In this document: in pieces, positions 4,078 to 17,983 of the stretch
How positions within the stretch are numbered: the first letter of the stretch is position 1
How the letters are laid out: each line of letters opens with the position of its first letter
Assembly (NCBI RefSeq): GCF_051097895.1
Contig: NZ_CP142525.1
Span: forward strand, 210,001-242,000
Reading direction: 5' to 3'
Source of the DNA: Psychrobacter sp. HD31
GTDB lineage: Bacteria; Pseudomonadota; Gammaproteobacteria; Pseudomonadales; Moraxellaceae
DNA: 32,000 nt
The notes under the pieces: generated by a model
The model's input: the letters and a program-made list of their open reading frames with translations, nothing else
Databases searched by the model: none
What the model was told of the DNA's origin: nothing
Program-made: the position numbers and the translations under genes

Positions 4078-4163
4078 GTAGAAATAACCTGTAAGGTACT
4101 ATTTGAACGATACTAAAAAATACTTTGTATCCTATTAATTTAATGACATATTTAAGGTTTGCT

Positions 4164-5834
4164 ATGCTTAAGGATAAAACAACCGTTTTTTTTGATAAAA
4201 AAAGCCAAGGTGTGCCATACTCTGCCGACTTAACCAGAGTCTTTGCCAGCATTTGCGAGGGCAAATCCAATACCTTATTGCTGGAATCTGCCGAGATTGA
4301 AAGCCGAAATAGCTTAACCAGCTTATTGTTTGTTAACTCAGCCTTACGCATTGTTTGTGATGAGCAAACCGTCACCTTTATTGCACTTAACCAAAATGGT
4401 AACGCATTATTGCCCAGTATCCAGCAGGCTCTTATCGATAAAGCAGAGTCTATTGAACTTGCTTCGCTTGATAATTGCGACACGGATACACCAGCCAATG
4501 ACCGCAAACAGCTTATCGCTACGTTTGCCAGTATCGACAACCGATTAGATGAAGACAGCAAGCTACACGCCCCAACGGTGTTTGATGGTTTGCGAGTGAT
4601 ACAAACCCTGTTTAACAAAGCCAATGCCAACGAGGTCGTTTATACTGGTGGCTTGTTTGCCTACGATGTGGTGCGAGGGTTTATCCCCATGCAGGGCATA
4701 ACCCTTGAGGACGATGGCATTACTTGCCCAGATTATAGTTTTTATTTGGCTGACCAGTTATTAATTTCTGACCACGAAAATCAACAAAGCGTCTTACACA
4801 GTTTCCACTTCTCGGCAGAACCAAGCGTACAAGCTGAAGTGACGCAACAAAGCAATACCATTGTTCAGCAACTAAGCCAGCCATTAAAAGACTTAACCAT
4901 TACGCCAGTGCCAACAGGCGTTAGCGAAAACTACGCTGATGAAGAGTTTATCGACATCATCACACGGTTAAAAACGCATATTTATAATGGGGATGTGTTT
5001 CAGATTGTGCCATCACGCCGTTTTTCGCTTGCTTGCCCAAGTCCGCTGGCAACTTACCATCAGCTTAAACAAAATAACCCAAGTCCTTATATGTTTTATA
5101 TGCAGGATGAGGCATTTACGCTATTTGGTGCCTCACCAGAAAGCTCACTAAAATACACACAAGACAACCGCAAGCTGGAGGTTTATCCGATTGCAGGGTC
5201 GCGCCCACGCGGATTTGACAGCAATGGCAACATTGACCCAGAGCTAGACGCACGTATGGAGCTTGATTTACGCCTTGATAAAAAGGAGCTGGCAGAACAT
5301 TTAATGCTGGTTGACCTTGCCCGCAATGACATTGCCCGAGTTTGTGACAGTGGCACTCGCCAACTAGACAAGCTCATGCAGGTTGACCGCTATTCGCACA
5401 TCATGCACTTGGTATCGAGAGTCACGGGCAAATTACAAGCTGACCTAGATGCCTTACACGCTTATCAAGCCTGTATGAATATGGGCACGCTTACAGGTGC
5501 ACCCAAAATTAAAGCCATGCAACTGATTTATCAGCAAGAAAAACAAAAACGCCATAGTTATGGCGGTGCGGTGGGCTATTTTACCTCAAATGGTGACCTT
5601 GATACTTGTATTGTCATTCGCTCTGCCTTTGTGCAAAATGACATTGCCCATATCCAAGCGGGTTGCGGAGAAGTCCTTGATTCAGACCCGCAATTAGAAG
5701 CAGATGAAACCCGTCATAAAGCAGCGGCTGTGATTAAAGCAATTGTGCAAACCCATCAAGACAATAGCCATCATCAACGCAAACAAAATCAACCTATTAA
5801 CGAAGCACAAGATAAGGAGCAGAACAATGGCTAA
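4164..5834 (+). CDS. trpE: Anthranilate synthase component I
   Basis: Strong collinear similarity to enteric TrpE: LLLESAEIESRN feedback region, FQIVPSRRFSLACPSPL, NPSPYMFYMQD, GASPESSLKY, LMLVDLARND and GTLTGAPK. Start placed at ATG 4164 (SD AAGG 7 nt upstream, N-terminal length like E. coli); the track ORF starts at TTG 4125. The C-terminus has a low-complexity tail. Confidence 0.92.
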   Translation: MLKDKTTVFFDKKSQGVPYSADLTRVFASICEGKSNTLLLESAEIESRNSLTSLLFVNSALRIVCDEQTVTFIALNQNGNALLPSIQQALIDKAESIELASLDNCDTDTPANDRKQLIATFASIDNRLDEDSKLHAPTVFDGLRVIQTLFNKANANEVVYTGGLFAYDVVRGFIPMQGITLEDDGITCPDYSFYLADQLLISDHENQQSVLHSFHFSAEPSVQAEVTQQSNTIVQQLSQPLKDLTITPVPTGVSENYADEEFIDIITRLKTHIYNGDVFQIVPSRRFSLACPSPLATYHQLKQNNPSPYMFYMQDEAFTLFGASPESSLKYTQDNRKLEVYPIAGSRPRGFDSNGNIDPELDARMELDLRLDKKELAEHLMLVDLARNDIARVCDSGTRQLDKLMQVDRYSHIMHLVSRVTGKLQADLDALHAYQACMNMGTLTGAPKIKAMQLIYQQEKQKRHSYGGAVGYFTSNGDLDTCIVIRSAFVQNDIAHIQAGCGEVLDSDPQLEADETRHKAAAVIKAIVQTHQDNSHHQRKQNQPINEAQDKEQNNG

Positions 5835-6456
5835 TATCATCTTTATTGATAATTTTGACTCCTTTACCTATAACTTGGTGGATGAATTTCGGGTGCTTGG
5901 GCATCAAGTGGTGGTTTACCGCAATGATGTTGATTTAGACACCATTACTCAGGCAGTATTGGATAAACCAAATACCCTGCTTGCCTTATCTCCAGGACCT
6001 GGCAACCCCAGCGAAGCAGGCAATCTACTTGCCATCATTGAACGGTTAAAAGACGCAGTGCCAATTTTGGGGATTTGCTTGGGGCATCAGGCGATTATTG
6101 AGGCGTTTGGTGGTACAGTGGTTCACGCAGGGGAGGTGATGCACGGTAAGGTATCGCACATCAAGCATGATGAACAAACGGTATTTAAAGGGTTAAAAAA
6201 CCCAATGCCAGTGGCACGCTATCATTCACTATGTGGTACCAACCTACCGCAAACGCTAACGGTGACTGCCAGTTATGATTACGTTGATGACAATACTAAA
6301 GACACACAAAACATTGTTATGGCAGTCAGGCACAACCGTTTGCCGATTTGTGGTTTTCAGTTTCATCCCGAATCCATTTTAACCTTGCATGGTTCGCAGT
6401 TGTTAAAGCAAACGGTAGACTGGTTGCTTGAGCCGTCCATATCAACACAATCATAA
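5827..6456 (+). CDS. trpG: Anthranilate synthase component II (glutamine amidotransferase)
   Basis: MANIIFIDNFDSFTYNLVDEF..., GICLGHQ catalytic Cys and FQFHPES. SD AAGGAG lies upstream. The ATG overlaps the trpE stop (ATGGCTAA, 8-nt overlap), which suggests translational coupling. The track ORF start at 5743 is an in-frame upstream artefact. Confidence 0.92.
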   Translation: MANIIFIDNFDSFTYNLVDEFRVLGHQVVVYRNDVDLDTITQAVLDKPNTLLALSPGPGNPSEAGNLLAIIERLKDAVPILGICLGHQAIIEAFGGTVVHAGEVMHGKVSHIKHDEQTVFKGLKNPMPVARYHSLCGTNLPQTLTVTASYDYVDDNTKDTQNIVMAVRHNRLPICGFQFHPESILTLHGSQLLKQTVDWLLEPSISTQS

Positions 6457-6478
6457 TATATTAACAACAGGAATCATC

Positions 6479-7492
6479 ATGCACACCGTCGACCCACTTT
6501 TAGAAAAACTCTTTGACGCCCAAACACTCACCCAAAAAGAAAGCCAAACGTTTTTTACTGCCATCGTCAAAGGCGAATTAAGCAACGAACAGCTCGCAGG
6601 GGCATTGCTTGCACTGAAGATACGAGAAGAAACCACCGAAGAAATCGCAGGGGCAGTGATTGCCTTACAACAAGATGCCAAGGCGTTTGCCTCACCAACG
6701 TATGCGTTTGCCGACATCGTTGGGACAGGGGGAGATGGGGCAAATACCATCAATATTTCTACCGCCAGTGCCTTAGTCGGGGCATCCTTATCTGACTATG
6801 GGGTTAAAGTTGCCAAACATGGTAACCACGGCGTATCGAGTCAAAGTGGCTCAAGCGATGTGCTCACAGCATTAGGCGTGAACATCAATGCAGAGCCTAG
6901 CATCGCTCGCCAAGCCTTAGACAAGGTGGGTATTTGTTTTTTATTTGCGCAAAAGTACCATCTAGGCTATAAAGAAATTGTGCCCGTACGCCAAGCACTC
7001 AAAACCCGTACCATCTTTAATAATTTGGGTCCTTTAATCAATCCAGCCAAACCAAAACGTCAACTGCTTGGGGTCTATAGCCCAGATTTGATTGATATGT
7101 ATGCCAACATTGCGGTTGCCTTGGGTCATGAACACAGCCTTGTGGTGCATGGCAGTGGCTTGGATGAAGTGGCATTACATGGTGCGACTCAAGTAGCAGA
7201 AATTAAAAATGGCAAAATTGAGCATTATCAAGTCACGCCAACCGATTTTGGGTTTAGCCAACAACCCCTGTCTGTTTTGGCAGGCGGTACACCCACCGAA
7301 AATGCCAAAGACATCATTGATATGCTAAGTGGTCAAGGTAATGAACACCATGCTCAAGCGGTTGCTATGAACACCGCCATGCTAATGAAATTATTTGGTC
7401 ATGATGATATTAAACAATCAGCAAGCATGATTATGGAGCATTTGGCGAGTGGGAAAGCGATGGCAACACTTGAGCAATTGAGAAGTTACTAA
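6479..7492 (+). CDS. trpD: Anthranilate phosphoribosyltransferase
   Basis: DIVGTGGDGANTINISTA, KHGNHGVSSQSGSSDVL and NPAKP motifs. Start taken at ATG 6479 (MHTVDPLLEKL). Confidence 0.92.
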   Translation: MHTVDPLLEKLFDAQTLTQKESQTFFTAIVKGELSNEQLAGALLALKIREETTEEIAGAVIALQQDAKAFASPTYAFADIVGTGGDGANTINISTASALVGASLSDYGVKVAKHGNHGVSSQSGSSDVLTALGVNINAEPSIARQALDKVGICFLFAQKYHLGYKEIVPVRQALKTRTIFNNLGPLINPAKPKRQLLGVYSPDLIDMYANIAVALGHEHSLVVHGSGLDEVALHGATQVAEIKNGKIEHYQVTPTDFGFSQQPLSVLAGGTPTENAKDIIDMLSGQGNEHHAQAVAMNTAMLMKLFGHDDIKQSASMIMEHLASGKAMATLEQLRSY

Positions 7493-7536
7493 TCCATGCT
7501 AAAAAATCGAAAGGTCAAAAGACAAAGAGTATTGAC

Positions 7537-8952
7537 ATGAGCCAACAAGACACCCCAACCATTCTAAAGCAAATCGTTGCCGATAAACGAGCATGGATAG
7601 CCAACAAACAAGCTGAGTTTCCATTGGAACAATTCCAATCGGAGATTGTGCCGAGTGAGCGTGATTTTTATACCGCTTTGCAGATAGGCATTGCTGGCAA
7701 ACATAGCCCTGCTTATATCCTAGAATGCAAAAAAGCCTCGCCATCTAAAGGGCTGATTCGTGCTGACTTTTCTCCCACACAGATTGCCAATATCTATAAA
7801 CACTACGCCAGTGCCATTTCTGTACTCACTGATGAAAAATACTTTCAGGGGAGTTTTGACTATATCAAACAGGTTCGTGAAGTTGCTCATCAGCCCATAC
7901 TTTGTAAAGATTTTATCGTGAGTCCCTATCAGGTGTATTTGGCTCGTTATCATCAGGCAGATGCCATTTTATTGATGTTATCTGTGTTAACGGATGAGGA
8001 ATATCTCCAACTTACTGAGCTTGCCCATGACTTGGGTATGGGCGTTTTGACCGAATCAGCAACCGAAGACGAGGTGCAACGTGCCATCAATTTAGATGCC
8101 AAAGTCATCGGCATTAACAACCGCAATCTACACGACTTGAGCGTGAACATTAATCGTACAGCACAGCTTGCCCAACCAATTCCCTCCGATAGAATTATCA
8201 TCAGTGAATCGGGAATAAAAAACCACCAGCATATTAAGCAAATACAACCGTATGCCAACGGCTTTCTTATCGGCAGTAGCTTGATGGCAGAGGAAGACCT
8301 TAATGCTGCTGTCCGTCGAGTGGTGTTTGGTGAAAATAAGGTGTGCGGATTAACACGGGCTGACGATGCCAAATCTGCCTATGAAGTGGGTGCGTATTTT
8401 GGTGGGTTGATATTTGCTGAGAAATCTAAGCGTAAGTTGACCTTGGAGCAAGCAAAACAGATTGTCAATTCTGCACCACTTAAGTTTGTTGCTGTCTTTC
8501 AAAACCAATCGATTGAACAAATCTGTGACGTGGCGGAATCTTTAAATCTGTTTGCGGTGCAGTTACATGGTGATGAAGATAACGCCTTTGTGAATGAATT
8601 GCGTGAAAGATTGGCAAAACCTGTACAGATTTGGAAAGCAATCAGTGTAGACATAGAGAGATCTGAGTTTATCGTGCCTGATTTTCCACAGGTTGACCGC
8701 TTTGTTATTGATAGCAAAGTCGGCAGTCAAACAGGTGGCACTGGTAAGACGTTTGATTGGTCACTTGTTCCTGCGGAGATTAAAGCAAAAAGTATGCTGG
8801 CAGGTGGCTTAAATATTGATAATATCAGCGATGCCAATGCCCAAGGATTTTTCGGGTTAGATATTAACTCTGGAGCGGAGAGTAGCGTGGGTGTGAAGGA
8901 TTTGGCTAAATTAAAATGCATTTTTCAGAGAACTCTACAATACGAAACCTAA
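7537..8952 (+). CDS. trpCF: Bifunctional indole-3-glycerol-phosphate synthase / phosphoribosylanthranilate isomerase (fused TrpC-TrpF)
   Basis: 471 aa. The N-terminal half is IGPS (ILECKKASPSKGLIR, GINNRNL). The C-terminal half is PRAI (KVCGLTRADDA, QLHGDE). This is the same domain order as E. coli TrpC. Confidence 0.92.
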   Translation: MSQQDTPTILKQIVADKRAWIANKQAEFPLEQFQSEIVPSERDFYTALQIGIAGKHSPAYILECKKASPSKGLIRADFSPTQIANIYKHYASAISVLTDEKYFQGSFDYIKQVREVAHQPILCKDFIVSPYQVYLARYHQADAILLMLSVLTDEEYLQLTELAHDLGMGVLTESATEDEVQRAINLDAKVIGINNRNLHDLSVNINRTAQLAQPIPSDRIIISESGIKNHQHIKQIQPYANGFLIGSSLMAEEDLNAAVRRVVFGENKVCGLTRADDAKSAYEVGAYFGGLIFAEKSKRKLTLEQAKQIVNSAPLKFVAVFQNQSIEQICDVAESLNLFAVQLHGDEDNAFVNELRERLAKPVQIWKAISVDIERSEFIVPDFPQVDRFVIDSKVGSQTGGTGKTFDWSLVPAEIKAKSMLAGGLNIDNISDANAQGFFGLDINSGAESSVGVKDLAKLKCIFQRTLQYET

Positions 8953-8967
8953 TTAAGGAAACTAATA

Positions 8968-10161
8968 ATGAATACGAAACTTCCTTCCTACTTTGGCGAA
9001 TATGGCGGTATGTTTGTGCCTGAAATTTTGGTACCTGTACTCTGTGAGTTGGAACAGGCGTTTATTGATGCTCAAAATGATGAAAGCTTTAAGCAGGAAT
9101 TTCATGAGCTGTTAAAAAATTATGCAGGTCGTCCAACCGCATTGACACTGTGCAAAAACTTGACCAAAGGCACAAATGCTAAGTTGTATTTAAAACGTGA
9201 AGACTTGCTCCACGGTGGGGCTCATAAAACCAATCAGGTGCTTGGACAAGCATTGCTCGCCTTACGCATGGGTAAAACAGAAATCATTGCCGAAACAGGG
9301 GCTGGACAACATGGGACAGCCACAGCGTTGGCATGTGCGTTGCTGGGATTAAAATGCCGAGTGTATATGGGTGCAAAAGACATTGAGCGTCAGTCGCCTA
9401 ATGTCTTTCGTATGAAGCTGATGGGGGCAGAAGTCATTGCAGTGGATAAAGGCTCAAGGTCATTAAAAGATGCTTGTTGTGAGGCGATGCGTGATTGGGC
9501 TGCAAACTATGATAAAGCCCATTATTTATTAGGGACAGCAGCAGGACCACACCCATTTCCGACCATTGTGCGTGAGTTTCAGCGGATGATTGGCGAGGAG
9601 ACAAAAGCCCAAATGCTAGAGCGTGAAGGGCGTTTGCCAGATACCATTGTCGCCTGTGTGGGTGGTGGCTCAAATGCGATAGGTATGTTTGCTGACTTTG
9701 TTGATGAAAAAGGCGTAGAGTTGATAGGAGTTGAGCCTGCGGGCAAGGGAGTGGATACCGATGAACATGGTGCGCCGCTAACACATGGACGTACGGGCAT
9801 TTACTTTGGTATGAAGTCGCCATTGATGCAAGACGACGATGGACAAATTGATGAGTCGTATTCGATATCAGCAGGTCTGGATTTTCCGTCTGTCGGTCCT
9901 GAGCATGCTCATTTACATGCTATTGGTCGGGTGACCTATGGTTCGATTACCGATGATGAGGCATTGGATGCCTTTAGCTTATTGGCTCGAAAAGAAGGAA
10001 TTATCCCAGCATTAGAATCATCACACGCCCTTGCGTATGCTATGAAGCTTATTCATGACAACCCCGGCAAAGAACAAATTATTGTGGTCAATCTATCAGG
10101 GCGGGGCGATAAAGATATATTTACCGTTGATAAATTTTTAGATAATGAGATTCAGCAATAG
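8968..10161 (+). CDS. trpB: Tryptophan synthase beta chain
   Basis: [24 protein letters not shown] (PLP lysine) and GGGSNAIG. Confidence 0.95.
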
Positions 10162-10170
10162 GAGAATGAT

Positions 10171-11031
10171 ATGAAAAAAGTCACGACCAGATTTAATACC
10201 ATGCTTGCTGAATTAGCCCAAAAAAACAATAGCAAGGGCAATCCTAGTAGCAATGAAAACAGCATTGGAGAAGGGGCATTTGTACCCTTTGTTACCCTAT
10301 GCGACCCTGACTTAGAACGCTCGTTTGATATCATTTGTACACTTGTAAATAATGGCGCCGATGCACTAGAGCTTGGGTTGCCATTTTCTGACCCATTGCT
10401 CGATGGTGAAGTCATTCAGGCGGCTAACCAGCGTGCGTTATCGGCAGGGCATAGCACCGAAGACAGTTTTAAACTACTTGAGAGAGTGCGTGCTAAATAT
10501 CCTGATACGCCTATCAGCCTGCTACTCTGTGCCAATTTGATTTTTGCTCAGACTTTAGATGGGTTTTATAAACGCTGTGCGGATATTGGCGTGGATGCGG
10601 TACTGGTGGCAGATGTACCATTGATGGAGTGTTTGCCATATTGTCAGTCTGCTGTTAAGCATGGCGTACAACCTGTGTTAATCTGCCCACCTAACGGTAC
10701 GGAGCAAACCATCGCTCAAGTTGCGAGTCTAACCCAAGGCTACACCTACCTTGTCTCACGTGCTGGGGTGACTTCGGCGGATAATCAAGAATCTGCGGGT
10801 AATCTTGATGAATTGGTAAGTAAACTCAAAGCCAACAACTCTGCTCCAATATTGCAAGGTTTTGGTATTGCTAAGCCAGAGCAAGTCAAAGATGCCCTAG
10901 ATAATGGCTGTGCAGGAGCAATTTCTGGCTCGGCAATTGTGCGTATTATCGAAAACAACCTTGATGACCATCAGTCGACTTTACAAAATCTGGGTGAGTT
11001 TGTAAGGCATATGAAGCAAGCAACAACTTAG
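10171..11031 (+). CDS. trpA: Tryptophan synthase alpha chain
   Basis: [29 protein letters not shown] and ISGSAIV. It carries an extra Asn/Ser-rich insertion of ~15 aa near the N-terminus relative to E. coli TrpA. Confidence 0.92.
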
Positions 11032-11296
11032 AATTACCTTTATTTTGTGTGATATTTGCTTTCTAACATTCATACTTATTAAAGCAAAACAACTAAATCT
11101 TTTCAGCCAATCCTGCTGTCCGCTCATATCTGCTTGTTTGCATGGGGCGTTGGCTAAGGTTTGGCGTGTCGCTTGCTACCACGTCGCCACACCAAACCAA
11201 GCCACCGCAATCCCACTCAACCAAGCAGGATAACCGCTACCATCAGGGCTAAACCGCACCTATGGTGAGGTTGGTTAAAATATTGCAAATATAATG

Positions 11297-11380
11297 AGTA
11301 GGTTGGGTTGAAGCATAAAACCCAACGATGGTTCTATTTTAATTGTGGTGTTTGTTCTCGATACCTCGACACTAACCTAC
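11297..11380. repeat. Palindromic (MITE/REP-like) element, copy A
   Basis: Termini AGTAGGTTGGGTTG ... CACTAACCTAC. The interior (tattttaattgtggtgtttgttctcgatacctcga) is homologous to copies B and C. It also contains the perfect 8-bp hairpin GTTGGGTT/AACCCAAC. Confidence 0.6.
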
Positions 11381-11399
11381 AAAGCTTGTATTGTTATAA

Positions 11400-11439
11400 A
11401 TTTATATCAATGCTAGGATAGCAAGATAATAAATTGTTA
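11400..11439 (+). repeat. Conserved 40-bp box, copy A
   Basis: ATTTATATCAATGCTAGGATAGCAAGATAATAAATTGTTA matches copy B (12685-12724) at 37/40 positions. It ends in GTTATGC about 20 nt before the next ORF. Confidence 0.8.
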
Positions 11440-11456
11440 TGCAATAAAATTATCGA

Positions 11457-11690
11457 TTGAATAAAGTTAAAGAAATAGAGATAGAATTTGGAATTCTTCA
11501 AGGTCGAGACTGCATTTACCTTGATGAACTACGATCATCGCATCAAAGATTACTGAACTTGATACATGGGAAGCCCAAAAAAATTGGTAAAATGAATCAA
11601 ACTTTGATTATGTCCATGAGCCAGATTGGTTGCGAAATTCTGGAGGAAAAGTTATTTCTAAGCACAGGCACTTCATTTTTTAACCTATGA
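11457..11690 (+). CDS. Hypothetical small protein (77 aa, TTG start), doubtful
   Basis: Only an open frame with a non-ATG start, no recognisable motif and no clear SD. The first in-frame ATG would give only 32 aa. Confidence 0.25.
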   Translation: MNKVKEIEIEFGILQGRDCIYLDELRSSHQRLLNLIHGKPKKIGKMNQTLIMSMSQIGCEILEEKLFLSTGTSFFNL

Positions 11691-11747
11691 TGATGTATTG
11701 GATATATTGTGCGAATCGTATGAATTTGAATTCGGGGAGCCACATGC

Positions 11748-11798
11748 ATAACAAACAAATCAAGAAACGGAAAAATGCAGCTTAGCTGGGCGTTATCT
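11748..11798 (+). other. attC-like site a (candidate)
   Basis: ATAACAAACAAATC...GCTGGGCGTTATCT. It has TAAC/GTTA termini, but internal pairing is weak by eye and 51 bp is short for an attC. It is followed by SD AAGGAG and GTG 11817. Confidence 0.25.
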
Positions 11799-11816
11799 CG
11801 AAAGGAGCCGTACAGA

Positions 11817-12425
11817 GTGATAGACGCAACGGACACAAAATTGAAAAAAGGCGATGAACCTTTTACTTATGAAGGCTCAAAACTAGCTTTTGATGTTCTG
11901 TCTTTTTGGCAATGGTCAAGTTCTGACCTGCTAGGAAATGCGCTTCGTGGGAAGTTAGCGGAATTTATTGTGGCTTCTAGCATTGATGCTCTATCAAGTC
12001 TCAGAGAAGAGTGGGATGAAGTTGATGTTGTGGCCTTAAACGGGTTAAAAATAGAGGTTAAATCCTCATCTTACTTGCAAAGTTGGCAACAAAATAAGCT
12101 TTCTAGAATCTCTTTTGGTATTCAGCCTACTGGCACATCACAAGCAAGAAATGAAGAGAAATTTAGGAAGGCAGATATTTATGTCTTTTGTGTTCTCGCA
12201 CACAAAGATATGTCGTCAGTAAATCCACTGAATCTAGAGCAATGGGACTTTTATATTCTTTCTACATCCGTGCTAAATGAAAAACTGCCAGAGCAACAAA
12301 CAATCACATTATCTAGTCTGTTGGAATTGAAACCTACTTGTGTAAAGTATGATGGATTGGGTGCTGAAATTAACAAACGAGATAACAAGCCAGTTCAGCC
12401 GACCGCTATAGCGGCGTATGACTGA
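11817..12425 (+). CDS. PD-(D/E)xK nuclease-fold protein (restriction-endonuclease-like), function unknown
   Basis: Open frame 11775-12425. I prefer the GTG 11817 start, 9 nt after a strong SD AAGGAG. Motif order is E (LAEFIVA) ... D (WDEVDVVAL) ... ExK (LKIEVKSS), as in PD-(D/E)xK nucleases. No adjacent methyltransferase. Confidence 0.65.
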   Translation: MIDATDTKLKKGDEPFTYEGSKLAFDVLSFWQWSSSDLLGNALRGKLAEFIVASSIDALSSLREEWDEVDVVALNGLKIEVKSSSYLQSWQQNKLSRISFGIQPTGTSQARNEEKFRKADIYVFCVLAHKDMSSVNPLNLEQWDFYILSTSVLNEKLPEQQTITLSSLLELKPTCVKYDGLGAEINKRDNKPVQPTAIAAYD

Positions 12426-12435
12426 GGCGTTACAA
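12382..12435 (+). other. attC-like site b (candidate), overlapping the 3' end of the nuclease ORF
   Basis: aTAACaaGCCAGTtCAgcCGaCCGCTA|TAGCGGCGtaTGACTgaGGCGTTAcaa. This imperfect hairpin is symmetric about the perfect palindrome CCGCTATAGCGG (12403-12414). About 20 of 24 positions pair, with bulged bases and TAAC/GTTA ends. At 54 bp it is at the short end of attC lengths as I recall them. Confidence 0.4.
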
Positions 12436-12530
12436 GTAAAGGATAGTTATGAGAGAGTATCGAGGAGAATGCCTTGATGCGTTTTCTGAGTATGATAGAT
12501 TAGTATGCTTGAAAACCAGCGTTCAGCTAA

Positions 12531-12653
12531 GTAAGTCGTGTTAGAATTTTTAGCAATTTCGTTAAAAATTGGTTAAAAGTCGTAAAGCGACAATATAGTT
12601 TTAATTTTGTTTTGGTTGTCGAGTTACCTCAGTGCCTTGCTAACACGACTTAC
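12531..12653. repeat. Palindromic (MITE/REP-like) element, copy B
   Basis: Perfect 14-bp terminal inverted repeats: GTAAGTCGTGTTAG (12531-12544) and CTAACACGACTTAC (12640-12653). The interior shares TGTCGAGTTAC and flanking blocks with copy C. Confidence 0.75.
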
Positions 12654-12684
12654 CTGCTTTCATGCTATGTTCATATTGTCAGTG

Positions 12685-12724
12685 ATTTATATCAATGCTA
12701 GGATGACAAAATAATAAATTGTTA
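12685..12724 (+). repeat. Conserved 40-bp box, copy B
   Basis: ATTTATATCAATGCTAGGATGACAAAATAATAAATTGTTA. It runs into GTTAGGT (12721-12727), 12 nt before the ATG at 12740. Confidence 0.8.
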
Positions 12725-12739
12725 GGTATATAAAAGTAT

Positions 12740-13219
12740 ATGAGCGCAATTCTTAAATGCCCCAAATGTAAAAGTGATTTAGGTAAATCAGGAGGCTATT
12801 ATTGTTGCTGGAATTCTGAATGTGATTTTCGCTCATATCGACCTTGGATTAGCCCACCTGAAAAAAAGGAAGAGTTTGATATATCTAAGGAACTTATCGT
12901 TGCAATTGGGGAATGCCTTAATGCTTCTGCAAACGGGCCATTCTTCGTAGATAATGAAGTTAAAGATAACCCATATTGGGAGTACCATACGTTATTAGGT
13001 TTCTATCCAGAGGAAGTACAGGAAATATCAGCGCAATGGCCTAACATAGATATTTCAGATAGTTTTATATCTGAGCTTATTAGCGATTGTTTTGCTAATC
13101 TACTAGGTTACCCACATAATTGCGAAAAATATTGGCTAGAATATTTTTCAAAAAATCGTGAGCAGCTGGCTGAGTTTGCTCGTCTTTGGAGAAAATCGAA
13201 ATATGCGCAAAGTATTTAA
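12740..13219 (+). CDS. Zinc-ribbon domain protein, function unknown
   Basis: 159 aa. The N-terminus has CPKC-x14-C-x4-EC (a four-Cys ribbon). The C-terminal ~110 aa are helical/acidic with no motif I recognise. The stop TAA lies inside ATTTAAC (13214-13220). Confidence 0.6.
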   Translation: MSAILKCPKCKSDLGKSGGYYCCWNSECDFRSYRPWISPPEKKEEFDISKELIVAIGECLNASANGPFFVDNEVKDNPYWEYHTLLGFYPEEVQEISAQWPNIDISDSFISELISDCFANLLGYPHNCEKYWLEYFSKNREQLAEFARLWRKSKYAQSI

Positions 13220-13325
13220 CAAGTTTAAGCAAAATGGACAGCTTTCTGTTTTCGTTTTTGAAATCGCTTTGCGATATTATTGGAAGACAGTTTCTATATA
13301 AATTTAACATTTAGCGGAGTTAATC
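13214..13325 (+). other. attC-like site c (candidate)
   Basis: Starts with ATTTAAC, a perfect RYYYAAC that contains the ORF stop, and ends with GTTAATC. It is exactly symmetric (55/56 nt) around the ATCGC-ttt-GCGAT stem at 13263-13275. TTAAC/GTTAA pair, followed by a 5-nt unpaired stretch. Mid-arm pairing is weak by eye. Confidence 0.3.
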
Positions 13326-13337
13326 TTCAAAAAGCCA

Positions 13338-13489
13338 AGTAGGTCGTGTTAGAAAAGGATGATTTCATCAGAAATTATCTGTCGTTGTAACACGCCGATA
13401 TAATAACTCTGAAATTTTTTGCGTGTCGAGTTACGTTTCTGCCCCCACCAAATCCAGCTACCATCTATCTAAGTGCCTTTAGACCTACT
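13338..13489. repeat. Palindromic (MITE/REP-like) element, copy C
   Basis: The left end AGTAGGTCGTGTTAG matches copy B at 14/15. The right end ...AGACCTACT pairs with only the outer 8 bp. The interior GCGTGTCGAGTTAC block is shared with B. A diverged copy of the 40-bp box follows at about 13562-13600. Confidence 0.6.
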
Positions 13490-13621
13490 GATTGTATACA
13501 TTATGCTTAAATATTAATGCAATGAAATAGCTTTTATTGCATTGTTTACATTGTTAGAAATTAATATCCTTGCTACTATTGAATTTTAATAAATTATTAG
13601 CCTTCAAGGAAAATTAATCAT

Positions 13622-14179
13622 ATGAATAAAATTTTAATAATACTCGCATCTATGGTTGTTGCCTCATGTGCAAGTAATCCAAATATTACCAACTACCAAA
13701 GCAAAGGCAACCTAGAATCACCAAAGCCGGCATCTTGTACGGTTATTAATCAGCTTCTTTCAAGTCAAAATCCAGCTGATATATTTGTGGGGATGAAAAA
13801 GTGTTTAAATGACGAAAATTATTCAACTGCCGCAGAAATGTACTACGCTGCAATGACATATGGAATCTATGACACCAAAAGAGTCAGCGACAAAACCGCA
13901 CATCAAGGTCTTATAGTCCTCCGTATGAACACATTAAATGGACTTTCAGAACAACAGATTTTTCTTCTCCAATCAGAAGTCAATGCAATCCGGCAAAATA
14001 ATGCAAAGGTATGTGATGCCTTAACTGCTAGAGGGCTACCATCATATCACCCGACATATATGATTCAGCATGGAATGGGTGCATTTACAGGAAGTCATAG
14101 CAACCAAGGTATTGTTGACGGTTTTGATAGGAAATCTGCATGGGCTGAGGCAATTGAAAAAACAGTTAAGTGCAAGTAA
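13622..14179 (+). CDS. Predicted lipoprotein, function unknown
   Basis: 185 aa. Signal peptide MNKILIILASMVVASC with lipobox VASC. No recognisable catalytic motif. Confidence 0.65.
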   Translation: MNKILIILASMVVASCASNPNITNYQSKGNLESPKPASCTVINQLLSSQNPADIFVGMKKCLNDENYSTAAEMYYAAMTYGIYDTKRVSDKTAHQGLIVLRMNTLNGLSEQQIFLLQSEVNAIRQNNAKVCDALTARGLPSYHPTYMIQHGMGAFTGSHSNQGIVDGFDRKSAWAEAIEKTVKCK

Positions 14180-14180
14180 A

Positions 14181-14243
14181 AACTAACAATCGCATATTGT
14201 GGGGGTGGTTTTCTGCTTTGCGCTAATCTTGCCGATGTTGTGG
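14181..14243 (+). other. attC-like site d (candidate)
   Basis: AACTAACAATCGCATATTGTGG...CGCTAATCTTGCCGATGTTGTGG. AACA(A)TCG pairs with CGATGTT with one bulged base, and GCAtATTg pairs with cTAATctTGC. ~60 bp. It starts 2 nt after the lipoprotein stop. Confidence 0.35.
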
Positions 14244-14286
14244 GCATTATAATGTGGATTTGAGTCATAACATATGAAGAGAAAAT

Positions 14287-14754
14287 ATGAAGTTTTACAA
14301 AGCAAGTGAATATCAGGCACGTTGTGAAGCGCTTTATCGTAAGTACGAACTTAAGATAACTGCGTTATTGCCAGATGCTGTAATTGAGCATATTGGCGCT
14401 TCGTCTATCCCTAATGCCGTATCTAAGGGCGATTTAGACATACTTGTGGGTGTTGACGGTAATAAATTAGAGCAATCAATAGAGGTACTTTCCACCTTGG
14501 GTTTCAATAAAAAACTTGATACGTTAAGAACCTCCGAGCTTTGCATGTTAGAAAGTACTTCTGGCGATGATGTCGCTTTCCAAATTGTTGCGATAGGTTC
14601 GCAGTTTGACGTTTTTGTCGAGTTTAGAGACAAGCTTTGCGCAAACCCTGCACTTGTTCAAAAATACAATGAACTAAAAGTATCTTGTACGGGTTTTACT
14701 CACGAGGCGTATCGTCGCAAAAAATCAGCTTTTATTGAGCTCGTTTTAGGGTAG
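14287..14754 (+). CDS. GrpB/UPF0157 family protein (nucleotidyltransferase-like fold)
   Basis: 155 aa. EHIGASSIPNAVSKGDLDILVGV matches the GrpB signature (HIGSTSVPGxxAKPIIDI). Confidence 0.75.
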   Translation: MKFYKASEYQARCEALYRKYELKITALLPDAVIEHIGASSIPNAVSKGDLDILVGVDGNKLEQSIEVLSTLGFNKKLDTLRTSELCMLESTSGDDVAFQIVAIGSQFDVFVEFRDKLCANPALVQKYNELKVSCTGFTHEAYRRKKSAFIELVLG

Positions 14755-14894
14755 GTATAACAAACGGCTTAAAAGCGATTTGTCTTGTGTGGTACTTTTA
14801 CTATGTATAAGTTTTAATGATGGAGGTGGTTGTGGTAACGGTGGTATTGCGTTATTTGACCTTTGTACTATGCCATTTTAATAGAGCGTTAGGT
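14755..14894 (+). other. attC-like site e (candidate)
   Basis: GTATAAC-AAACGGC-TTAAAAGCGAT ... ATGCCATTTTAA-TAGAGC-GTTAGGT. The outer TAAC/GTTA box and the inner TTAAAAG/CATTTTAA box pair, separated by a 6-7 nt unpaired spacer. This resembles the R-box/spacer/L-box layout of attC sites. 140 bp. Confidence 0.35.
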
Positions 14895-14912
14895 TAGTTA
14901 GAAGGAGAGGTT

Positions 14913-15716
14913 ATGTCCAGACTTGAAGGAAAGGTTGCATTAATTACCGGTGCTGCTAGAGGTATTGGACAAGCAATTGCTGAGTTATTCTCTGATGAAG
15001 GGGCGCAAATTATTGTATCTGATATTAATGACGAGCAAGGGCAAGCGGTAGCGAACAAGATTGGCGTCAATGCTAAATATATTCATTTAGATGTATCACA
15101 AGAATCAGAGTGGCAAAGCGCTGTAAAGTTTATTAAACATGAATATGGGCATTTAGATGTTCTTGTTAATAATGCTGGGATAACTGGTTTTCTTGAAACT
15201 CAAGGTCCTCATGATCCAGAGAATCTTGATATGGATAGTTGGCACAAGGTGCACGCAACAAATTTAGATGGTGTGGCACTGGGTTGTAAATACGGCATTC
15301 AACTAATGAAAAGCGCTAACCATGCCAGTATTATAAACATCTCATCAAGATCCGGTATTGTTGGGATTCCTGCCGCAACGGCATACGCCTCAAGTAAAGC
15401 CGCTGTCAGAAACCATACAAAATCAGTCGCATTGTACTGTGCAGAAAAAAACTATTCTATTAGATGTAATTCAATACATCCTGGCGCAATCTTTACACCA
15501 ATATGGGATACCATGCTTGGAGAAGGAGCACAAAGAGAAACGACAATAAAAGAAATCTCTGCTGGTGTACCACTGGGTATTATGGGAGAACCAAAGGATG
15601 TTGCTTATGCTGCTTTATATTTGGCTTCAAATGAATCTAGGTATGTAACCGGTATTGAGCTTAATATAGATGGGGGCATTCTTGCTGGCAGTACTGCAGC
15701 TCCATCGGCTAAATAA
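14913..15716 (+). CDS. Short-chain dehydrogenase/reductase (classical SDR) family oxidoreductase
   Basis: TGAARGIGQAI cofactor motif, NNAGI and the catalytic S...YASSKAAV. SD GAAGGAGAG lies upstream. Confidence 0.9.
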   Translation: MSRLEGKVALITGAARGIGQAIAELFSDEGAQIIVSDINDEQGQAVANKIGVNAKYIHLDVSQESEWQSAVKFIKHEYGHLDVLVNNAGITGFLETQGPHDPENLDMDSWHKVHATNLDGVALGCKYGIQLMKSANHASIINISSRSGIVGIPAATAYASSKAAVRNHTKSVALYCAEKNYSIRCNSIHPGAIFTPIWDTMLGEGAQRETTIKEISAGVPLGIMGEPKDVAYAALYLASNESRYVTGIELNIDGGILAGSTAAPSAK

Positions 15717-15997
15717 TATATAAGTTAGGTTAGTAATAAAAAGGGAAACATTACCTAGGTAAAATAAATCCGTGGTTTGTTAATGTCGTAAAAACCTCTT
15801 ATCTGTTATTTAGGTAGTTATAACGGATAACTCGCATAGAGTGTTCTTAACAAAGCAAAACCGAGCTACGCAAAGGTAAGGGATAGCTAATATATAATAC
15901 CACCTTCTTAGGAATCAAACCCCACCGCAAAAACCCCTTTCGAACCAGCCCCTTAAAAAAAAACTGTTTAAAACCTCAAAAAAACATAAAAAACCCC

Positions 15998-16025
15998 TTG
16001 CCAACCTAAAAAAACTGCGTATAAT
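15998..16025 (+). promoter_or_regulatory. rrn promoter P1 (sigma70)
   Basis: TTGCCA, 16 nt, TATAAT. An A-rich UP-like tract lies upstream and a GC-rich discriminator (acgccctc) downstream. Confidence 0.65.
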
Positions 16026-16152: not shown

Positions 16153-16180
16153 TTGACACGAGAGATAAACACTATATAAT
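16153..16180 (+). promoter_or_regulatory. rrn promoter P2 (sigma70)
   Basis: Consensus TTGACA, 16 nt, TATAAT, located 155 bp downstream of P1. Tandem P1/P2 is the arrangement seen in E. coli rrn operons. Confidence 0.75.

Positions 16181-16449: not shown

Positions 16450-17983
<1,534 letters not shown>

Follow-up and report, generated by a model that had tools for sequence, protein, structure and literature searches.

A probable integron-type cassette array without its own integrase between trpA and an rRNA operon in Psychrobacter sp. HD31

What occupies the interval that separates the tryptophan operon from a ribosomal RNA (rrn) operon in Psychrobacter sp. HD31, and by what route did it come to lie there? 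The stretch analysed, hereafter the window, comprises 32,000 nucleotides (nt; contig NZ_CP142525.1, positions 210,001 to 242,000) and holds a complete trpE-G-D-C(F)-B-A operon on the + strand (4125-11031, with trpA at 10171-11031), followed to the right by the rrn operon (16S at 16450, tRNA-Ile/Ala, 23S, 5S) with its P1-like (15998-16025) and P2-like (16153-16180) promoters. The DNA between trpA and rrn shows a G+C content of 33-40%, compared with 42-48% in the trp genes. An earlier reading made from the letters alone (the sequence-only reading) had described six or seven short, co-oriented open reading frames (ORFs) in this interval and proposed a cluster of attC sites lacking an integrase (CALIN); the co-orientation on the + strand is borne out, with five solid ORFs counted between trpA and the 16S gene. 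The segment from 11437 to ~15970, between trpA and the rrn P1 promoter, is very probably an integron-type cassette array without an integrase of its own, which by definition is a CALIN (PMC4889954). The evidence for this assignment includes (i) boundaries at G|TT, where the bar marks the crossover, (ii) complementarity between the R'' box and the 5' end of the same unit, and (iii) the absence of intI from the window. The array is partly decayed and stands at a variable chromosomal site.

The boundaries were read from comparisons with three other genomes, in which the differences from the window fall at G|TT, as the sequence-only reading had proposed: at 11792 and 12429 (Gilvimarinus), at 12721 (a metagenome scaffold) and at 11436 (a metagenome-assembled genome, MAG). 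The first comparison concerns a T4 endonuclease IV (EndoIV)-like protein, a label taken from the precomputed Pfam assignment PF26887; Gilvimarinus sp. SDUM040013 encodes a homologue of it with 89% identity. Window 11788-12435 aligns with positions 1104-1751 of the Gilvimarinus locus (L004) at 89% nucleotide identity over 648 nt, the alignment beginning 4 nt before G|TTATCT (11792), as GG(G/A)C-G|TT(A/G)TCT, and ending in GCG|TTACAA (12429-12435). The flanks of this unit are unrelated in the two genomes, its neighbours in Gilvimarinus being small ORFs for ParE/ParD, Dabb and YjbR. In addition, the 5' end of the unit, GTTATCT (11792-11798), has its exact complement in R'' AGATAAC (12380-12386), as expected of an element that circularises.

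The second comparison involves a 159-aa ORF with one homologue, P0121 (72% protein identity), on metagenome scaffold L013, where six small + strand ORFs follow one another with 110-120-nt repeats resembling the Vibrio cholerae repeat (VCR) between them. The DNA similarity starts exactly at GTTAGGTA (window 12721, G|TTAGGT), spans the stop codon and R'' (ACCTAAC in L013), continues for ~25 further bases and then ends. In the window, R'' ATTTAAC (13214-13220) includes the stop codon of the ORF and pairs with GTTAGGT (12721) at 7/7 positions, two of them as G-T, the ACCTAAC of L013 being an exact match.

The third comparison locates the left edge. MAG GCA_002747095.1 (locus L016) encodes a TrpA 79% identical to that of the window and is syntenic with it at 80-86% DNA identity from a transglutaminase-like gene through trpA. 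After trpA the two share a 53-nt element (window 11386-11438, L016 11013-11065; 88.7% identical), and the similarity is lost exactly after ...AAATTGTT (11438), an end also written ...ATAATAAATTGTT. The first G|TT (11436) stands 405 nt right of trpA, and the array begins there, not at 11032, where the sequence-only reading had placed its left edge. The spacer from trpA to the shared element measures 167 nt in the MAG and ~355 nt in the window, the part proximal to the element being recognisably similar. Right of the junction the MAG carries a 763-aa AAA_13 protein, an 81-aa ORF, a 129-nt attC and an LCM methyltransferase, with CCATAAC AAATC as a half-site at the end, and none of these features recurs in the window; the 129-nt attC is VCR-like and close to the qnrVC1 attC (z 11.5). 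A weak similarity to the MAG returns at ~15975, in an A/C-rich stretch just upstream of rrn P1.

The sequence-only reading had seen no integrase near the array, and this holds for the whole 32-kb window. No integrase appeared when the ORFs of the array, ten flanking ORFs and trpA were scanned against Pfam, the other long ORFs, left aside in these scans, being trp-operon genes or antisense shadows. A tblastn search with IntI1 of the window and of loci L003, L004, L013 and L016 revealed neither intI nor a remnant of it, the best match in the window (E 0.12) being noise.

The motifs themselves were quoted at their correct positions. The + strand TAACAA occurs in the interval at 11749, 12371, 12383, 13217, 14184 and 14758, with a further copy at 15848, and its placement at ORF ends exceeds chance, since it lies within -60..+15 of the stop in 4/5 array ORFs, against 3/15 of the remaining genes and 5.6% of 75-nt windows drawn at random. 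The copies of GTTAGGT at 12721, 14888 and 15724 represent three of the four on the + strand of the 32 kb, and the first two stand, as described, 12 and 18 nt ahead of the ATGs at 12740 and 14913.

The array and the repeat that punctuates it, D1, comprise the following features.

11386-11442, + strand: D1 copy 0, ending ...ATAATAAATTG|TTATGC, where the array begins on the left (G at 11436)
11437-11792, + strand: cassette 0, 356 nt, ending in attC a and bounded by the D1 G|TT and G|TTATCT
11793-12429, + strand: cassette 1, T4 endonuclease IV-like protein (PF26887); solid ORF 11775/11817-12425
12430-12721, + strand: segment X1, no long ORF, with a 31-aa ORF, a 14-bp perfect inverted repeat and D1 copy 1
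12657-12727, + strand: D1 copy 1, repeat family D1, in X1
12722-13319, + strand: 159-aa cassette with zinc-ribbon-like solid ORF 12740-13219; 3' end at 13319 (GTTAATC) or at ~13513
13320-13596, + strand: segment X2, with hairpin H2 (13341-13392), a TTGTAAC...GTTACGT hairpin (13380-13437) and D1 copy 2
13513-13600, + strand: D1 copy 2, in X2, ending ATTAGCC
13597-14237, + strand: lipoprotein-like unit, solid ORF 13622-14179, then weak site d
14238-14888, + strand: GrpB unit, solid ORF 14287-14754 (PF04229) with attC e; putative 5' boundary
14860-14892: weaker D1 copy
14889-15716, + strand: SDR unit, solid ORF 14913-15716 (Pfam adh_short), starting 18 nt past the GTTAGGT of attC e
15709-15972, + strand: right end of the array, with a 16-bp-stem hairpin 15709-15724 / 15798-15813 (CTAAAT...ATTTAG)

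Five hairpins had been proposed as attC-like by the sequence-only reading, and two or three of them are convincing. Their R/L pairs were counted in canonical geometry, out of 14 and without a shuffle control.

11746-11798, + strand: site a, GCATAAC AAACA AATCAAGA ... GCTTAGC TGGGC GTTATCT, short and eroded; 10/14 pairs
12380-12435, + strand: site b, R'' AGATAAC, L'' AGT[T]CAGC, R' GTTACAA; 9-10/14 pairs
13214-13325, + strand: site c; 8-9/14 pairs
14181-14243, + strand: site d, weak, AACTAAC AATCG ... GTTGTGG; 8-9/14 pairs
14755-14894, + strand: site e, 140 nt, GTATAAC AAACG GCTTAAAA ... TTTTAAT AGAGC GTTAGGT; 12/14 pairs
attCs of other arrays, for reference: 11-13/14 pairs

Site b, singled out beforehand as the best hairpin (12382-12435), deserves that rank: its minimum free energy (MFE) fold is that of a classical attC, the L box being bulged, its best duplex partner lies at -11.3 kcal/mol and it is the top match of all three covariance models described below. 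Sites a and e fit the geometry, the 5' half of a resembling the arr-2 attC, and sites c and d are unsupported. The outer-box, spacer and inner-box pairing described for 14755-14894 is confirmed as geometry (canonical 5/5 R/L geometry, with an interior that weakly resembles attCs of the VCR type at z 2-2.5), but the MFE fold does not contain it and the models do not detect it. The exact symmetry claimed for 13214-13325 could not be reproduced, the MFE fold differing from the description, and at all sites other than b the MFE folds leave the proposed ends unpaired. The R'' and spacer of site d have CTAACAATCG in common with the attC of a cupin cassette.

The models derive from class 1 integrons found in PLSDB through the attI1 sequence, where 18 attC sites delimited in eight arrays were checked to fold as expected. 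R1, a trimmed R/L-box model, recovered 27 known sites at E <= 0.003, and R3 was built from the alignment of the R1 matches with the variable region as an insert, including nothing from the window or from chromosomal arrays. Models R1 and R2 (51-column, trimmed) were rejected as too insensitive to long attCs, R1 omitting the qnrVC1 attC of its own training set in a control search with default filters. A CALIN is expected to show at least two attC sites, <4 kb apart, that an attC covariance model recognises (IntegronFinder keeps E<1), and R3 served here as a substitute for the IntegronFinder model. R3 recognises window 12380-12435 on the + strand with 17.5 bits (E 0.005 in the 5.1-kb interval, 0.06 in 63 kb) and, marginally, 11746-11798 on the + strand with 12 bits (E 0.1 in the interval, 1.2 in 63 kb). 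In the comparison loci it finds four attCs in L013 (E 6e-6 to 2e-4), two in Gilvimarinus L004 (1696-1751, the orthologue of site b, E 2e-5; 132-230, E 4e-5) and the VCR-like site of the related MAG (E 0.03). The Gilvimarinus orthologue reaches 32 bits with R3, against the 17.5 bits of window attC b, and two L-box pairs broken in the window are intact in Gilvimarinus, a difference that reads as erosion of the window copy. Several attC sites have lost their L-box pairing, so that a large part of the array can probably not move any more.

The D1 repeat, 60-85 nt long, was overlooked by the sequence-only reading. As a repeat it spans 11386-11438, 12657-12723 and 13513-13595; its copies end at 11436, 12721 and 13594, every one at a cassette boundary, and two such boundaries are verified by comparison: the crossover at the GTT of D1 is seen against both L013 and the MAG, with three copies present and no intI adjacent. 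An attC-like structure was rejected for D1, whose consensus forms no hairpin, and a role as promoter was likewise discarded, promoter matches being no commoner than in shuffled sequences. A metagenome scan for D1 found again only the contig of the related MAG. Compared with attI1 of class 1 integrons (DR2-DR1-L-R: GTTATGG / GTTACGC / CCTAAAAC-AAA-GTTAGGC), D1 likewise ends in an imperfect inverted pair, TAAT-AAATT-GTTA, with the crossover at its GTT, and has an upstream direct TTGTTA repeat ~43 nt away, which amounts to a loose resemblance only; on the other hand, it has no adjacent integrase gene, occurs in three copies in this one array and shows no sequence similarity to attI1. We entertain only tentatively, and with more doubt than belief, the idea that D1 (...TTGTTA-N36-ATAATAAATTG|TT) might serve as an orphan docking site of attI type, retained on the downstream side of trpA by two or more species of the clade and loaded with varied cassettes by a recombinase encoded elsewhere. 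If this were true, the locus would be an integron platform without a resident integrase, its cargo including a candidate phage-defence gene in the MAG, and the D1 copies inside the array would be traces of the platform having itself been captured repeatedly.

Several observations weigh against the cassette-array assignment. D1 is unlike a standard attC or attI, because it forms no hairpin and no intI adjoins it. The 8-9/14 pairs of sites c and d are, by a rough estimate, about the level of chance once the TAAC/GTTA ends are fixed; the L boxes of site d are unpaired and no model matches it, and R3 finds nothing further on either strand of the interval, the models missing sites c, d and e. The 17.5-bit match, which is borderline, would correspond to an E of ~2 on the 2.17-Mb genome; at that scale neither window match would fall below E 1, and neither is significant genome-wide. 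As to gene content, (i) the homologues of the lipoprotein (~50%; Shewanella and Kangiella contexts) are ordinary chromosomal genes outside arrays; (ii) in the Vibrio plasmids that carry the closest GrpB relatives, the similarity is confined to the coding region and R3 detects no attC in those contexts; and (iii) the 3' end of the SDR gene shows no clear attC.

A rival explanation is an ordinary variable islet, whose genes would have entered beside rrn, at a hot spot for transformation or homologous recombination, the attC-like motifs being incidental or brought along passively from integrons of other bacteria. The interval does differ between relatives, the lipoprotein and GrpB families are found outside integrons as well, and most of the proposed hairpins are weak. 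Homologous replacement, however, would break within the conserved flanks and not at the crossover base, whereas three independent breakpoints lie exactly on GTT sites, and the complementarity of R'' with the 5' end is specific to circularising cassettes; we regard an islet of this kind as highly improbable. Somewhat less remote, though still unlikely, is the relic of a sedentary chromosomal integron, in which an intI-attI platform beside trpA lost its intI by deletion and left the array to decay. Loss of intI is one of the listed origins of CALINs (Cury et al. 2016, PMC4889954), and the eroded attCs are in keeping with it, namely site b with its 17.5 bits next to the 32 bits of Gilvimarinus, and sites c and d without L-box pairing. 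Against this origin, tblastn detected no intI remnant, the spacer between trpA and D1 (167 nt in the MAG, ~355 nt in the window) leaves no room for a lost gene, and the entirely different cassettes right of the same G|TT demand recombination after any shared loss.

The cassette array assembled without a local integrase remains the preferred assignment. Two diverged genomes present the same empty junction between trpA and D1, with unrelated cassettes right of the same G|TT, which favours insertion in trans at a fixed chromosomal site; this is a better reading than local loss of intI. Each unit would once have been a circular cassette, comprising an ORF and its attC, inserted at G|TT by an IntI-type tyrosine recombinase. 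The integrase would act, now or formerly, in trans, encoded elsewhere in the genome or on a transient mobile integron, and the docking site would be the conserved ...TAATAAATTG|TT downstream of trpA. The ORFs are co-oriented with trp and rrn, which suggests that expression may proceed by read-through or from weak promoters of their own.

The array resembles a typical CALIN, which has ~5 attC sites (Cury et al. 2016, PMC4889954), in its short co-oriented cassettes, its attCs of R''/L''/L'/R' type and the G|TT crossover, in the absence of intI within 10 kb and of an intI pseudogene, and in its few cassettes, mostly of unknown function and without resistance genes (PMC4889954). It differs in that only two window sites obtain a covariance-model score, and weakly; that a conserved non-hairpin element, D1, heads the array and recurs inside it; and that a single fixed trpA-rrn locus is used in two diverged genomes with differing cargo. 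What marks a complete or sedentary integron, namely intI beside an attI together with a promoter at the head of the cassettes, is missing, there being no intI in the 32 kb. Similarities to the sedentary integrons of Vibrio comprise (i) the VCR-type attC near the qnrVC1 attC in the array of the relative, (ii) window site e, VCR-like in length (140 nt) and beginning ATAACAAACG, and (iii) the nearest GrpB relatives, encoded on Vibrio plasmids. In contrast to them, the window has no adjacent intI/attI/Pc platform, contains five to eight units, not tens or hundreds, and its attCs are heterogeneous and eroded, not a homogeneous family.

CALINs as such are well known, and the array extends cassette arrays to a Psychrobacter chromosome; a full-text literature search, judged mostly by titles, of which none carried the genus name, returned no paper centred on Psychrobacter integrons. 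CALINs are common and poorly understood, their origin and the continued movement of their cassettes being unclear. The trpA-rrn array has a defined address between core loci, a conserved junction at which the comparison of two genomes shows the crossover base directly, and cargo that differs completely between them. It is in this way a small, tractable case for studying recombination in which the integrase is supplied in trans and the target is a secondary or attI-like site. In practical terms its value is modest: it carries no resistance genes, and several of the sites look dead.

Turning to the individual units, cassette 0 has poor coding potential, with a doubtful 77-aa ORF starting from TTG (11457-11690), and Pfam and NCBIfam searches of it gave no match. 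In cassette 1 the EndoIV-like ORF is probably 11817-12425, starting with GTG behind GAAAGGAG and encoding 202 aa, rather than starting from the ATG at 11775, and the Gilvimarinus gene is annotated with the same start and 202 aa. A PDB sequence search with this protein returned noise only, and a PADLOC search of the window cassettes matched none of them.

The 159-aa cassette may truly end at ~13513 rather than at 13319, since the 5' half of site c pairs best with 13492-13512 (-11.2 kcal/mol). Single giant attCs spanning 12380...12727 or 13214...13600 were considered and rejected, because site b is complete by itself. The perfect 14-bp inverted repeat of X1 lies at 12531-12544 / 12640-12653, and the inverted repeats of X1 and X2 are of the form GTCGTGTTAG...CTAACACGAC; they could each represent two successive attCs face to face, the first by its 3' half and the second by its 5' half, which would make them cassette remnants, and X1 may be either such a remnant or an ORF-less cassette. 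The 31-aa ORF of X1 (12449-12544) has a good AAGGA ribosome-binding site 19 nt past the boundary at 12429, and its TAG stop falls inside an R'-like GTTAGAA motif.

At the other end of the array, the homologues of the SDR on plasmids are all below 60% identity. Besides its long hairpin, the right end holds the third GTTAGGT (15724), an R''-like TCTTAAC AAAGC (15845) and GTTTAAA (15966).

In the related MAG, the 763-aa AAA_13 protein (L016 11523-13814) gives a match to PDC-S06, a candidate defence family in PADLOC (E 3e-175). Directly right of the D1 junction, L016 11093-11232 contains a 13-bp perfect inverted repeat (GTGCAGTTGACCT / AGGTCAACTGCAC) around a nested hairpin, comparable in form to the 14-bp repeat at window 12531-12653.

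The ~230-nt stretch between trpA and the array that the MAG lacks (~11040-11270) carries a match to the Rfam Flavo-1 motif (RF01705) at 11105-11254 on the - strand, with 49.4 bits against a gathering score of 42, folding into a 150-nt hairpin of -73.4 kcal/mol (z -4.4); this motif has been described from Bacteroidetes only. The TrpA of the window agrees at 100% with the protein that NCBI assigns to Psychrobacter sp. HD31, so that the genus guessed by the sequence-only reading is right by name. The relatives of TrpA comprise the one MAG at 79%, the next named ones being Pasteurellaceae (65-70%), and in the same metagenome as the MAG further relatives at ~70%, whose trpA lies outside a full operon. 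The more distant TrpA relatives L019 and L021 show a different synteny and proved unusable for comparing the interval. The complete trp operon, taken together with Pasteurellaceae as the nearest named TrpA relatives, suggests that trpEGDC(F)BA was horizontally acquired or that the genus label is misplaced. Finally, a thiamine pyrophosphate (TPP) riboswitch lies at 2039-2160 on the - strand, upstream of a solute-binding protein gene (853-1950), its 57 bits standing barely over the gathering score of 54.3.

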